A DNA stretch of 64,000 nt, from assembly GCA_040876345.1 (NCBI GenBank), contig JBBDPM010000001.1, positions 270,313-334,312 of the forward strand. The letters are read 5' to 3'. The stretch comes from Candidatus Woykebacteria bacterium (GTDB taxonomy: Bacteria; Patescibacteriota; Microgenomatia; Woykebacterales; RBG-16-39-9b). Each line of letters begins with the position of its first letter. Within the stretch, counting starts at the first letter, position 1. The notes under the pieces were generated by a model. That model was not told the DNA's origin. It saw only the letters and a list, made by a program, of their open reading frames with translations, and did not search any database. Below, one piece after another: positions 25,085 through 44,198 of this stretch. Made by a program: the position numbers and the translations under genes.

Positions 25085-25723
25085 ATGGATGAGACTGGCC
25101 AACCGGTCCAAAACACAGCAAACCCCAACCCAAAACCCGTTTCCTGGCCGAGAGTTTTGTTAACTGTATTAATAATAGTACTGGTGGTGAGTATATTAGC
25201 CGGTGGCTATTGGTATTTTGTACTCAACAAGCCGTCAGAGACGGTCGATACCAGCCCAATCAAAGTCTCCACTCAATCTTCAAAAAAAGCAACAGAATCT
25301 TCAAAAAAAGCCACTTCTTCTGCCAAAAAAGACGAAACTGCTAACTGGAAGGTTTACGAAGAAAAACAACTTGGATTTTTAATTAAATATCCTGGGACTT
25401 GGTCGATAAAAGCTGGGACGAGCGGTAGCGTTAGAGTCGTAAAACTAAACAAAGATCGGGAATCAATTGAAATTTATGAGGATGGAGGCATAGAAGGCGG
25501 AACTGACACGACAGTAGAACTCGCTGTTGGTTCCCACAAGCTAGAGTTCTGGGTATTCGACTCAGAGACAAACAGTCAAATTACATATGTTAATAGTAGT
25601 CCGAGATTAGAATCCAGGACATCTTCGTTGCTATTATTTTACATAATTCTTGACAGAAAAACACACGATCAGAGTTTAGCAGAGGTTAAAAAGATCCTTT
25701 CAACCTTCAAACTCCTGGACTAA
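25085..25723 (+). CDS. paralog-family member 1: Pro/Gln-rich N-tail, signal-anchor TM, S/T/K-rich linker, globular domain ending ILSTFKLLD
   Basis: shares N-terminal block (VSWPR/K-TM-WYFVLNKxS-TVDTxPIKVST-KKATESSKKATSS) and C-terminal STFKFLD motif with ORFs at 35400, 42280, 43866 and decayed copy 31283-32050. Confidence 0.5.
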   Translation: MDETGQPVQNTANPNPKPVSWPRVLLTVLIIVLVVSILAGGYWYFVLNKPSETVDTSPIKVSTQSSKKATESSKKATSSAKKDETANWKVYEEKQLGFLIKYPGTWSIKAGTSGSVRVVKLNKDRESIEIYEDGGIEGGTDTTVELAVGSHKLEFWVFDSETNSQITYVNSSPRLESRTSSLLLFYIILDRKTHDQSLAEVKKILSTFKLLD

Positions 25724-25908: not shown

Positions 25909-26178
25909 TAAGTCATAATTGAATTAAAAGAGCCAAAAGTTTATACTCCAGAGCAAGTGGCAAGGATGCTGCAGCTTTCTAAAAATACTGTTTACGATCT
26001 TATTAATCGAGGCGAAATTTTGGCAAAAAAGGTTGGGAAAGTTTACCGTATTCCCGAAAGCTCAATTTCTTTTGTTTTTACTGGTTTAGACTCCGACCTC
26101 CTTCAAGTTGAGCAAGAGGATTTGAAAAATATCGAAACTGTCAAAAAGGAAATCTCCGGCGCCCGCAGGAAATTATAG
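25909..26178 (+). CDS. excisionase/AlpA-family HTH DNA-binding protein (putative antitoxin)
   Basis: ...KVYTPEQVARMLQLSKNTVYDLINRGEILAKKVGKVYRI HTH; conserved helix-1 extends upstream of the first ATG (25957) in an open frame back to 25903, so start is probably a non-ATG codon (ATA/ATT ~25906-25911); start coordinate uncertain. Confidence 0.55.
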
Positions 26179-26186
26179 CCCCCTCC

Positions 26187-26609
26187 ATGAAAGTTTTTGT
26201 GGATTCAGACGTGGTTATCTCATCTTTACTTTCTCAATCTGGGGCAGCTTATATTTTGACCAACGCCAAAAACCTTCAACTTTTTATTTCAAATATTGCC
26301 TATCAAGAATTAAAAATTGTTACTGAAAGGTTGGGAATAGAAAAGCAAAAACTTGATGATCTTTTAAGAGAACGGTTTAAGACAGTTGAATTAGAAGAAA
26401 ATTTATCTGTAATAAAAGGAAAATATGGAAATCTTGTATTAGATCAAAATGATGCTCATATTTTGGCTGGTGCAAAAGCAGAAAGTGCAAGGTTTTTGGT
26501 TTCATATAGCACCAAACATTTTAAGGCCGAGGAAATTAAGAGAGTCTTTAATATTATTAGTTTAAAACCGGCTTTTATGCTTCAATATTTGAGGAGTTTG
26601 CAAAAATAG
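26187..26609 (+). CDS. PIN-domain protein (VapC-like toxin)
   Basis: MKVFVDSDVVISSL N-terminal acidic motif of PIN domains, 140 aa, 9 nt downstream of HTH gene. Confidence 0.6.
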   Translation: MKVFVDSDVVISSLLSQSGAAYILTNAKNLQLFISNIAYQELKIVTERLGIEKQKLDDLLRERFKTVELEENLSVIKGKYGNLVLDQNDAHILAGAKAESARFLVSYSTKHFKAEEIKRVFNIISLKPAFMLQYLRSLQK

Positions 26610-31282: not shown

Positions 31283-32050
31283 CTAGTCGAGGAATTTGAG
31301 GGTTGATACTATGGAATCTAGAGCTGGTTCAAACTGACCCCTAACAAAATATGCTGTGAAAATGAAAACAGTAGTTTTGTTTGCTTCAATATAGATAGAT
31401 ACTGTCCTAAGTTCTTTTAAATAACCTTGATAACTTATATTTTTATAAACAGTAAAATTCCCCAGTTTCTTTGATTCCAAGTCTTCATACGACGAAGGAG
31501 GACAGCAATCTGATCTATTTGATAAGGCAAAATTTTTAAGATTATTATCACCTTTCTTTAAAACCTTGTTGATAGCAATTTTATACTATCCTTCCCTTCA
31601 ATTAATTCTCTTCCAGCAGCATTTTCTGGGTCGTAATTAGTAATATTTGCTGTAGCTTGTCTGTCATAAGCTGTTTTCCCAGACCAACTTTTTGCAGATT
31701 CAATAAACCATTTATTTGGGTACCTCAACTCAAACCCTAGAACTATATCTTTATAAGTCTTCCACCCAGTAGTCTCGTCTTTTTTGGCAGAAGGTGTGGA
31801 AGAGGGTGTAGCTTTTTTCGCGGTCGGGGTAGAGACTTTGATTGGGGTTTGGTCGACAGGTTATGTTGACTTACCTAACACAAAATACCAAAGCCCACCT
31901 CCGATTAATCCGGTAATTATAACTACAACAATTACTATAATAATTATTTTTGACCAAGAAAGTCCTTTCGAAGTCGATACAACTTGGGGAGTTGGTGTCG
32001 AAGGTTAAATCTGTGGTTGTGTTTGAACAGGATCTTCAGGCACTAATTTA
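31283..32050 (-). pseudogene. decayed copy of the STFKFLD paralog family (in-frame TAA near N-term, stop after TM, -1 frameshift mid-gene)
   Basis: minus-strand translation gives ...PEDPVQTQPQI*PSTPTPQVVSTSKGLSWSKIIIIVIVVVIITGLIGGGLWYFVLGKST*PVDQTPIKVSTPTAKKAT...WKTYKDIVLGFELRYPNKW...(frameshift)...FEPALDSIVSTLKFLD*; track ORFs 31283-31480(-) and antisense 31784-32008(+) are fragments/shadows of it. Confidence 0.55.
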
Positions 32051-32124
32051 TCAAATGTAAACTTAGTATTGTCGAGCTCGAGCGTTTGCTTGCAAGGCTG
32101 AAGAGTGATAAAATAAGCTTCAAT

Positions 32125-33162: not shown

Positions 33163-33894
33163 ATGATAAAGCTAGATAGGGGCTTTTACACTTTTAAAAC
33201 CTTTTCTTTATACCCTAAACTTTTAGGTATCGTCACAACAAAACTTGCCGGGAACTTCAAGAGTCTTAAAAACAACGATACTAGGCCACTTTTTATTTTG
33301 GAACAGTTAGGAATCGATCACCGTAAAGTCGTCCAAGCCCAGCAGATTCACAGTGGTAATGTAGCTTGGGCTCATGATTATAATGCGGCTAGCACTATGC
33401 AAGGGTATGATGGTCTAATAACTAGTGAAAGAAACCTTTTTTTAACAGTTCTTGTAGCAGATTGTGTTCCGATTTTATTCTTTGACCCGGTCCAGAATTT
33501 TATTGCAGTTGCTCACAGCGGCTGGCGTGGTGCTTTGCAAAAGATAAGCCTTGCGGTTGCCGAGGAATTTACAAAATTTGGCTCTAATAAAGAAAATATT
33601 TTGGTTGCGGCCGGACCCTCTATAGGCAACTGCCATTACGATATTGACTCCTCTCGCGCGCAACTCTTTGATCTCTCTTTTGGTAAAGATAAAGTCACAA
33701 GAGAAGAGAAGGGAAAGATTTATTTAGATTTGGTAGCGGCTGCAACTAACCCCTTATTGGAATTTGGAATTCCGGAGAAAAATATTGAAGTATCTGGAGT
33801 TTGTACTGCGGAAAGCAGTGAATTTTATTCTTATCGAAGGGAAAAAGAAAGTGGGGGAAGATTTGCCGCTATAATTGGAATGAAGAATGAATAG
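33163..33894 (+). CDS. pgeF: peptidoglycan editing factor PgeF / YfiH (DUF152) family protein
   Basis: ADCVPILFFDP...AVAHSGWRG...CTAE motifs of YfiH/PgeF family; sits between mraY and murD. Confidence 0.7.
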   Translation: MIKLDRGFYTFKTFSLYPKLLGIVTTKLAGNFKSLKNNDTRPLFILEQLGIDHRKVVQAQQIHSGNVAWAHDYNAASTMQGYDGLITSERNLFLTVLVADCVPILFFDPVQNFIAVAHSGWRGALQKISLAVAEEFTKFGSNKENILVAAGPSIGNCHYDIDSSRAQLFDLSFGKDKVTREEKGKIYLDLVAAATNPLLEFGIPEKNIEVSGVCTAESSEFYSYRREKESGGRFAAIIGMKNE

Positions 33895-35399: not shown

Positions 35400-36125
35400 T
35401 TGATGGATAATCCTGTTCAGGCTAGCCAACCACAGTCAAATCAAACACCCTTAAGCCCAACTCAAGCGTCAGTAGCAAAACCAGTTTCTTGGCCAAAAAT
35501 TATTTTAACTGTTTTAGTTATTGCGATTGCTGTTGGATTATTAGGCGGTGGGCTCTGGTATTTTGTTCTAAATAAATCATCAGATACAGTTGACACAACC
35601 CCAATCAAAGTCTCTACCCCATCTGCAAAGAAAGCAACAGAATCTTCAAAAAAAGCCACCTCTTCTACCACAAAAGACGAAATATCTAATTGGGAAACTG
35701 ATGTTGAAAATTTCATGGGATTAAAGTTCAGCTTAAAGTACCCTGCTAAATTCACTATTTACAGGAGTCATAATGCAGATGCCGTTTATACGACCGACGA
35801 AGGTTCCGAGAAGTTTTATGTCGTGACAAACAGAAGTTCGCTCATAACGAATTATGAGAACGGTGATGTTAGCTTATCTGTTTATGTTGAAGATAATCCT
35901 GTCTTGGCTCAAGGGATTAAATATGTGGATGCGGAATTCGCTGGAGTGGAAGCCAAAATGGGTGAGGGAGAGAGTCAAGGCGGTGGAAAAGTAGAGTATT
36001 ACACTAACAACCAACCATCAGCCAAGGGTAAATATGTAACTTTCTCATGCCTTTTTTACCCCTCCACTGATTTAGACCTTAAGAAAATATGTGACTTGAT
36101 GGCCTCAAACTTCAAATTCCTCTGA
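35400..36125 (+). CDS. paralog-family member 2 (ends ...MASNFKFL)
   Basis: N-terminal 90 aa and underlying DNA (tcttcaaaaaaagccac(c/t)tcttct...) nearly identical to member 1; C-terminal FKFL motif. Confidence 0.5.
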   Translation: MMDNPVQASQPQSNQTPLSPTQASVAKPVSWPKIILTVLVIAIAVGLLGGGLWYFVLNKSSDTVDTTPIKVSTPSAKKATESSKKATSSTTKDEISNWETDVENFMGLKFSLKYPAKFTIYRSHNADAVYTTDEGSEKFYVVTNRSSLITNYENGDVSLSVYVEDNPVLAQGIKYVDAEFAGVEAKMGEGESQGGGKVEYYTNNQPSAKGKYVTFSCLFYPSTDLDLKKICDLMASNFKFL

Positions 36126-42279: not shown

Positions 42280-42999
42280 ATGCCAGAGAACACTAACCAA
42301 CCAACACCAACTCAACCAGCATCACAAGGAATTAATTGGAAAAATATCCTTATTGGAGTAATTATTGGTGCAGTTCTAGTTGGTGGTGGAGGCTTTCTAG
42401 TTTACAACGCCTATCAACCCAGGAAAGAAGAGCTAATCCAAACTACCACAACTCCAACAAAAACAGCGATGCCATCTGCTTCAAAAGATAAGTCTGGTAA
42501 GTGTGATACCTATTCAAATAAGGTTGTGGGAGTAGAATTTAAATGCCCAGAGGGCTGGTTTTTTGAAGAAACTACGATACATGAAGTTAAAACAGTAGGT
42601 CTTTCAGACAAACCTTTTGACTACGAAGGTAAAGATAATATTATGATTACTATAAATACTGGAGATAATAGCAATGACGCTAAATTCAGATTCAGGGACG
42701 TGGAAGAATTAAAAATTGGTGCAACGGAGACACGCAAACCAGATTCGGATAACCCGTACACAGCAAAGACAACTAGATTGGCGGACGTCGAACTTGGTGG
42801 GGTTAAAGGTTTGCAATTTGAAGAAATTGATATTCCAGTGAGTAAGAAGGAGGATATTACACCATACAATTTATACATCTACTTTAAGCGAAACGACGAA
42901 TACGGAGACATCAGTTTAACAGTTAGAGGTGAAACTACTTATAAATCTGCAAAGGAAATACTGAAAGAAATTCTTTCAACCTTCAAATTCCTCGACTAA
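42280..42999 (+). CDS. paralog-family member 3 (ends ...ILSTFKFLD)
   Basis: Pro/Thr-rich N-tail, TM (ILIGVIIGAVLVGGGGFLVYNAY), C-terminal domain ending KEILKEILSTFKFLD. Confidence 0.5.
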   Translation: MPENTNQPTPTQPASQGINWKNILIGVIIGAVLVGGGGFLVYNAYQPRKEELIQTTTTPTKTAMPSASKDKSGKCDTYSNKVVGVEFKCPEGWFFEETTIHEVKTVGLSDKPFDYEGKDNIMITINTGDNSNDAKFRFRDVEELKIGATETRKPDSDNPYTAKTTRLADVELGGVKGLQFEEIDIPVSKKEDITPYNLYIYFKRNDEYGDISLTVRGETTYKSAKEILKEILSTFKFLD

Positions 43000-43865: not shown

Positions 43866-44198
43866 TTGAAAATTATGGCTGATGCACCAGTTCAGGTGCC
43901 GCAAACACCCCAAGCCCCACAAACACCACCGGTCTCACAAGTTGTTCAGGGAGGTGGTAAGGGTATATCGTGGGGAAAAGTGATACTAACCGTAGTAATT
44001 ATTGTAGTTGTAACGGCTGCTATAGCCGGGGCTTTATGGTATTTTGTATTAAACAAAACTTCGGATAGTGAAGAGTCTTTAGGTAACGTCAGAATAACCA
44101 CCCCCAAGACTACCGCTTCAACAGACTCCGCTACGAAGTCGGCGACAAAATCCGCTGAAGCTACTAAATCTGCTACAAAGTCTGCAAACAGCGAATAG
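43866..44198 (+). CDS. paralog-family member 4, truncated (110 aa: N-tail + TM + S/T/K-rich repeats KSATKSAEATKSATKSA, no globular domain)
   Basis: shares ISWGKVILTVVIIVVV...WYFVLNKTSDSEE block; strong promoter TTGACA-17-TATATT (43742-43770) and GAGGAGG SD. Confidence 0.45.
   Translation: MKIMADAPVQVPQTPQAPQTPPVSQVVQGGGKGISWGKVILTVVIIVVVTAAIAGALWYFVLNKTSDSEESLGNVRITTPKTTASTDSATKSATKSAEATKSATKSANSE

Follow-up and report, generated by a model that had tools for sequence, protein, structure and literature searches.

The junction between murF and mraY in the cell-wall gene cluster of a Candidatus Woykebacteria genome carries, on the minus strand, what is very probably a non-functional pseudogene of a single-pass, membrane-anchored surface-protein gene. 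Within the 64,000-nucleotide stretch that was analysed (hereafter the window), a complete member of a local paralog family can be read from 32043 to 31283 using two frames of the reverse complement, in the order N-terminal tail, one transmembrane (TM) helix, Ser/Thr/Pro/Lys linker, and an ectodomain running from WKTY to STLKFLD and a stop. Assignment of the whole feature (31283-32043, minus strand) rests on these reading frames, on tblastn matches to the paralogs, on a HMMER match to the intact protein P0006 (E 2.6e-39) and on the alignment with homologues. All elements of the family signature are present and in order: the N-tail, a TM helix with a WYFVL end, an S/T/P/K linker with a KKDET end, the W-K-x-Y...Y-P-x-x-W strand and the C-terminal S-T-F/L-K-F-L-D. 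A preliminary description of this DNA had reported four family peptide blocks on the minus strand, and all four were found there; GLWYFVLGKST, PIKVSTPTAKKAT and WKTYKDIVLGFELRYPNKW share one frame, while FEPALDSIVSTLKFLD lies in a frame displaced by one base.

Translation of the relic yields four pieces. The start position (32041-32043) is occupied by GTG where a DNA alignment places ATG in all four paralogs, and this GTG may represent a weakened start codon. The first piece, V/M-PEDPVQTQPQI, is ended by a TAA at codon 13 in the N-terminal tail (32005-32007). The second consists of PSTPTPQVVSTSKGLSWSK, the 24-residue hydrophobic helix IIIIVIVVVIITGLIGGGLWYFVL and GKST, and is closed by another TAA at codon 61 (31861-31863), directly after the TM helix. 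The helix itself (codons 33-56, 31876-31947) aligns with the paralog anchors and is equivalent to helix 17-41 in the AF2 model of P0006. The third piece reads PVDQTPIKVSTPTAKKATPSSTPSAKKDETTG, followed by WKTYKDIVLGFELRYPNKWFIES...GRELIEG. The Ser/Thr/Pro/Lys-rich linker spans 31765-31875 and has exact tracts in common with other copies (24 nt with the copy at 35400, 19 nt with the copy at 25085), and the first part of the ectodomain (WKTYKD...GRELIEG, 31594-31764) is placed in the start-codon frame by frame reading and homologue alignment. The frame then changes, and the fourth piece runs from YKIAINKVLKKGDNNLKNFALSNRSDCCPP to FEPALDSIVSTLKFLD and a TAG. This second part of the ectodomain (YKIAINK...RSDCCPP...STLKFLD, 31286-31585) was identified from the frames, by HMMER and by alignment, and the relic's own stop TAG was read at 31285-31283. 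The two premature TAA codons, one in the N-tail and one after the TM segment, had both been recognised in the preliminary description.

The relic converges on murF, with 2 nt between the stop codons, and diverges from mraY, with 81 nt between the start positions. The mraY-proximal part of this divergent intergenic region (32044-32124, from the relic start to the mraY ATG) is conserved with the nearest representative genome, L003 (blastn 79% over 39 nt). For the murF flank the best NCBIfam match is TIGR01143 (E 6e-70, under the curated cut-off), and the mraY flank matches TIGR00445 at 201.9 bits, over the cut-off. No Rfam match was found in the relic region, and a promoter and terminator scan of the same region gave nothing worth interpreting above shuffle expectation. 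GC makes up 31% of the distal half and 38-41% of the intact paralogs; as weak evidence, this may fit relaxed selection in an AT-biased genome. Both ORF fragments mentioned in the preliminary description, 31283-31480 (minus) and 31784-32008 (plus), occur in the ORF list. The latter is a 74-aa antisense ORF lying over the relic's anchor region. Both public assemblies annotate a gene of 70-74 aa here, most plausibly an artefact that shadows the opposite strand, and this annotation should give way to a pseudogene feature on that strand.

The lesions were defined by comparison with intact family members. The TAA at codon 61 aligns with GAG or GAT (Glu/Asp) in the three paralogs that have the same linker. 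At the frame break the window reads GAA GGG AAG GAT AGT ATA AAA, which contains GAAGG GAAGG ATAG TAT, while intact homologues have G-E-Y-K-I or G-K-Y-K-V at this site; removal of 5 nt from the relic gives an ungapped alignment with these homologues. Because intact homologues of the ectodomain were found, the break could be placed. We scanned all 1-, 2-, 4- and 5-nt deletions and all 1- and 2-nt insertions across 31535-31644, a stretch of the ectodomain; each variant was scored with an HMM that included the homologues only and not the relic. The top scores (186-189 bits) belonged to 5-nt removals within 31586-31603, and one of these, removal at 31592-31586, leaves no stop and gives ELIEGKYKIAINK. 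The lesion is thus a net gain of 5 nt located at 31586-31599. It may have arisen either by tandem duplication of GAAGG (31599-31590) together with a Glu-to-TAG change at 31588-31586, or by a 5-nt insertion that itself makes the TAG; under either origin the net change is +5 nt. The preliminary description had proposed a -1 frameshift in the middle of the domain, which captures the effect on the frame correctly, although the event is this 5-nt insertion rather than a single-base change. A single-base shift between 31561 and 31585 (reading ...GKDSIKIAINK...) was also considered and is ruled out by the intact homologues, the HMM scan favouring the 5-nt removal. In total, the relic holds three or four disabling changes in 761 nt.

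Such damage could in principle reside in the sequence record rather than in the organism: the sequence is MAG-derived, and two relatives with the same ectodomain type (L089 and L090), both on low-coverage metagenome contigs, show single lesions that are possibly errors. That the gene is intact in the cell and that its stops and frameshift are consensus errors is nonetheless extremely improbable. Over 13.2 kb around the relic, the sequence recurs with 100% identity in the NCBI MAG GCA_040903525.1 (contig JBBDVF010000004.1) and in the independent Logan assembly of SRR27977661, the two having been produced by different pipelines, possibly from the same or related samples. An identical MurF is found on six contigs, three of which also contain the 74-aa antisense ORF in exactly the same form, extending across both TAA codons. 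Consensus errors would moreover have to explain how three or four separate lesions, of two kinds, came to fall within 450 nt with every flanking essential gene left intact, and a 5-nt insertion is not a homopolymer-type error. Compared with its intact homologues the relic has a frameshift and two or three premature stops, and two assemblies give the same sequence; the decay put forward in the preliminary description is very probably real.

It is scarcely credible that the locus still functions, be it through stop read-through combined with a programmed frameshift or through separately translated fragments (TTG-initiated ORFs of 56 and 65 aa). Small ORFs are indeed present at 31558-31728 and 31283-31480, but these fragments, lacking an anchor or any signal, would have no route to the cell surface, and neither covers more than part of a single domain. 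Expression of the full-length product would require three separate recoding events. Among the 55 long ORFs of the window, TAA is the stop in 18, TAG in 23 and TGA in 14; since all three codons end ordinary long ORFs, no stop codon is reassigned and recoding does not explain the interruptions. Nor was a slippery heptamer of the form X XXY YYZ found at 31586-31599, where the shift site was read by eye.

As a pseudogene, the relic can be accounted for by a simple sequence of events. The ancestral product would have comprised a short N-terminal tail, one TM helix, a Ser/Thr/Pro/Lys linker of ~35 residues and an extracytoplasmic PsbP/Mog1-fold domain of ~160 residues belonging to a subtype marked by RSDCCPP. 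The window lineage would then have acquired two TAA nonsense codons within the first 61 codons and the 5-nt insertion in the middle of the domain. Translation from the relic's start position would now end after 12 residues, with no downstream ORF keeping the anchor. The relic today would be only an 844-nt spacer breaking the murF-mraY junction of the cell-wall cluster. The ancestral product was presumably located at the surface and the relic is presumably not expressed. The decay looks recent, because the family motifs, the domain length and the original stop are intact and only three or four disabling changes are present. The relic may also have been a dead-on-arrival copy.

The preliminary description had regarded the relic as a fifth copy of its family. 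A tblastn search of the window with the stitched relic protein supports this, finding four other copies far beyond chance. Intact paralogs follow murB (25085-25723, plus strand, 212 aa, E 1e-25) and murD (35400-36125, plus strand, 240 aa, E 8e-27), and a more divergent intact copy follows ftsZ (42280-42999, plus strand, 239 aa, E 5e-9). The fourth, also after ftsZ (43866-44198, plus strand, E 2e-4), is truncated, with an N-tail, a TM helix and a low-complexity linker and no ectodomain. This truncated copy has a repetitive ATKSATKSA linker with only 115 nt left before pyrG; it is either a deletion product without its ectodomain or a small membrane protein in its own right. All five family copies lie at 25-44 kb, within the peptidoglycan/division cluster, and none was found in the other 44 kb of the window. 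This clustering hints, circumstantially, at an envelope-related role. The NF042931 profile (SAG1386/EF1546 surface-associated protein) gives paralog 25085 a score of 24.3 bits against a cut-off of 80 bits, matching the anchor and linker only.

Two further features of the cluster were noted. The cell-wall cluster houses a toxin-antitoxin-like pair with HTH_17 and PIN domains (25966-26609, plus strand), flanked by the post-murB paralog and murA, and a related contig, L083, has a ParE-like pair after ftsZ. The gene for the peptidoglycan editing factor, pgeF (33163-33894, plus strand; TIGR00726, over cut-off), is located between mraY and murD; at the pgeF position in L003 only a 42-residue match is kept.

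The repaired relic ectodomain was searched exhaustively with HMMER against 1.84 billion representatives, which recovered intact homologues that span the relic's break point. The closest of these is P0006 (48% identity, E 2.6e-39), followed by P0007, P0008 and P0009 (E 1e-24 to 1e-26) and by the most divergent, P0010 (E 1.6e-10). The motif R-S/V-D/E-C-C-P-P is found in P0006-P0009 and is missing from P0010. A word-indexed protein search with the stitched relic gave five matches, all to the N-terminal module, and missed the window's own paralogs, so that absence cannot be argued from it; a metagenome scan gave only three weak loci. Two loci of the RSDCCPP type themselves look damaged. In L089 (6001-6760) a stop follows ...TSFIG, beyond which the same frame stays readable to STFKFID, and in L090 (1-774) the anchor and ectodomain are in different frames. 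Both are single metagenome contigs, and the damage reflects either recurrent decay or low-coverage-contig errors.

The fold of the lost protein was modelled on P0006, as the closest intact homologue. The AF2 model has a mean pLDDT of 81.5, with most of the domain above 85, and consists of a TM helix (17-41), a disordered linker (45-68) and a compact alpha/beta domain (79-232). A Foldseek search of the PDB with this model gave 18 matches at E<=1e-3, of which 15 are Apa, PsbP/CyanoP, BT_1490 or 3lyd and three are Tsi3 or PsbP-containing PSII complexes; the PsbP matches are of cyanobacterial and plant origin, and MTC28, DcrB and DUF1795 chaperones are also listed among the PDB matches. A profile search of PDB sequences gave no match. 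The Pfam profile PF18933 (PsbP_2) matches 10 of 13 relatives (best E 1e-8) and covers P0006 from position 20 to 183 of its 184 positions at 18.8 bits. Window paralogs score 16-19 bits (16.4 and 18.8), below the 27-bit gathering score, and the stitched relic has no match to this profile. The predicted structure of the P0006 ectodomain is a PsbP/Mog1-type alpha/beta sandwich, and we infer the same fold for the relic's lost protein. By analogy, the ancestral product would have been a surface-exposed binding module that a flexible linker holds off the membrane.

Several known proteins resemble the family in part. CyanoP (PDB 2xb3, 2lnj) and PF18933 share the alpha/beta sandwich ectodomain (Foldseek E 1.4e-5, TM about 0.59 target-normalised), and PsbP-like proteins also share the extracytoplasmic location. 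The family differs from CyanoP and PsbP_2 in having a non-photosynthetic host and in carrying a TM helix and a long low-complexity linker in place of a lipobox or signal peptide. The best structural match to the P0006 model is mycobacterial Apa of M. tuberculosis (PDB 5zx9, Foldseek E 4e-6). Apa and MTC28 (4pws, 4ol4), both mycobacterial antigens, are cell-envelope proteins in which the fold is preceded by a Pro/Ala-rich low-complexity segment. In contrast to the family, with which they share 10-18% sequence identity, they are secreted by means of a cleaved signal peptide and are not membrane-anchored; their fibronectin binding and glycosylation cannot be carried over to the family. DcrB, the DUF1795 chaperones (EagT6/SciW) and Tsi3 belong, like the family, to the Mog1/PsbP superfamily (Foldseek E 7e-4 to 1e-2), but these are weaker, partial matches from T6SS chaperone and immunity contexts, and there are no T6SS genes near the relic.

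The murF-mraY slot was compared among relatives collected by a MraY scan with one genome per GTDB species, which puts the window with Patescibacteria akin to Candidatus Woykebacteria. In L003, whose MraY and MurF are 81% and 76% identical to those of the window, the same slot and strand hold an intact family gene, encoding 232 aa from a TTG or 220 aa from an ATG at MPEE, and a second family copy follows murD. In seven more distant genomes (L004-L010, MraY 64-76% identical) murF and mraY are separated by 41-268 nt of non-coding sequence, and a search of these gaps detected no family-gene remnants. Given the intact slot gene in L003 and its absence from L004-L010, the simplest history is that an ancestor shared by the window genome and L003 gained a gene in this slot, which later lost its function in the window lineage. 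Together with the truncated copy at 43866-44198, this supports the birth-and-death turnover at the locus that the preliminary description had proposed.

The search for an intact orthologue at the same position, also suggested in the preliminary description, was answered in part. The L003 gene is intact and is the positional counterpart of the relic; its orthology is not demonstrable. Its similarity to the relic is confined to the anchor, linker and first strand (119 residues, 42% identity), and the two ectodomain cores are no more alike than shuffled sequence (z about -1). In other frames and at the DNA level, the sequence they share was limited to the anchor/linker, the junction KKDET-W, the terminal STFKFLD and intergenic DNA next to mraY. 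As its ectodomain cannot be aligned with that of the relic, L003 does not prove that the relic's gene was once intact at this slot. More widely among the relatives, family copies are found in some of the same cluster gaps on either strand; after murD, the window and L003 carry a plus-strand copy and L004-L007 a minus-strand one.

Within the family, anchors and ectodomains show different relationships. P0008, which sits after murB in L089, has a core that matches that of the relic with z = 53. L089 is about as distant from the window genome as L003 is (MurB 77%, MurA 70% identical). In every other family pair tested, including the two post-murD copies, the ectodomain cores are no more alike than shuffled sequence. 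Upstream of murF, L004 has an ectodomain of the type found at window position 35400. That the post-murB and murF-mraY slots had traded ectodomains reciprocally was considered, and rejected when the 25085 copy was compared with the L003 slot gene (core z = 0.1). For the N-terminal module, identities are 45-59% among the window slot, post-murB and post-murD copies and 52-64% among the L003 and L089 copies, compared with 38-47% between these two groups. The grouping by lineage is not clean, as the two post-ftsZ copies of the window have only 24-43% N-terminal identity with any other window copy. The relic's anchor has its nearest match, at 65%, in P0001, which comes from another metagenome. Separately, the two family copies of L004 (1098-1763 and 7914-8186, minus strand) join unrelated ectodomains to the near-identical N-tail VPNPLAKNPNFHTHKVFAAIGIIL, and the tail also occurs in L005 and L007. 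The pattern suggests that the 5' module is homogenised within a lineage.

Judged from these alignments, anchors do not track ectodomains, and ectodomain types are not tied to slots. The pattern is compatible with gene conversion of the 5' module combined with replacement or movement of ectodomains; repeated duplication and loss would explain it just as well. Evidence that modules are actively exchanged in the family is thin. A broader proposal, that the cluster houses a modular, recombining surface-protein system in which anchors and linkers undergo gene conversion within a genome, unrelated PsbP-fold ectodomain types are swapped between slots and dead copies serve as donors, is in our estimation very unlikely; if true, it would provide an episymbiotic CPR bacterium with a means of surface variation.

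The narrower idea that the relic is kept as a silent donor, an ectodomain reservoir recombined into expressed paralogs via the shared linker and C-terminal sequences, has features in its favour: the anchors are more alike within the two lineages than between them, ectodomain types do not follow the slot, and the variable cores are bordered by tracts of 16-29 nt that copies share exactly. We rate it as highly improbable all the same, as these homology arms are short, the other copies are complete genes rather than promoterless cassettes, there is a single relic with its own start region present, and no mosaic tract from the relic core was found in any window paralog (core z about 0). Neisseria pilS, Borrelia vls and Mycoplasma MgPar are silent-cassette loci for antigenic variation. 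The family resembles them in its variable cores with conserved ends and in having a non-expressed copy beside expressed ones, and differs in that the other copies are full, independent genes, that mosaicism was not detected and that an array of promoterless cassettes is missing.

The preferred reading, a pseudogene, makes the relic itself ordinary, since pseudogenes are common in CPR MAGs: in Parcubacteria MAGs, one survey with Pseudofinder is reported to count about 5-10% of genes as pseudogenes (PMC11188291). Like other pseudogenes of CPR/Patescibacteria MAGs it has been disabled by nonsense and frameshift changes, and it differs from them in nothing fundamental; what is unusual is its position, antisense inside the murF-mraY junction of a division/cell-wall cluster. 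It offers a dated view of a streamlined Patescibacteria genome losing a gene. More generally, the comparisons point to a membrane-tethered PsbP-fold family that turns over unusually fast and repeatedly fills gaps of the peptidoglycan/division cluster in Woykebacteria-like organisms. If the family mediates cell-surface or host contact, which would be an inference, the family's gains, losses and swapping of modules would bear on how episymbionts adapt.

In three of the relatives that have no family gene between murF and mraY, the 230-270 nt gap contains a conserved non-coding element (L004 4733-5000, L006 4742-5000 and L007 1430-1658). The element of these three genomes has no Rfam match and is absent from the window. 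It begins with a hairpin directly after the murF stop, GTTACTTTTTAGAAAAGTAAC, which in L006 reads GCCACCTTTTCAAAAAGGTGGC and so shows compensatory changes; beyond the hairpin lies a longer stretch with a CCGC...GCGG closing pair.
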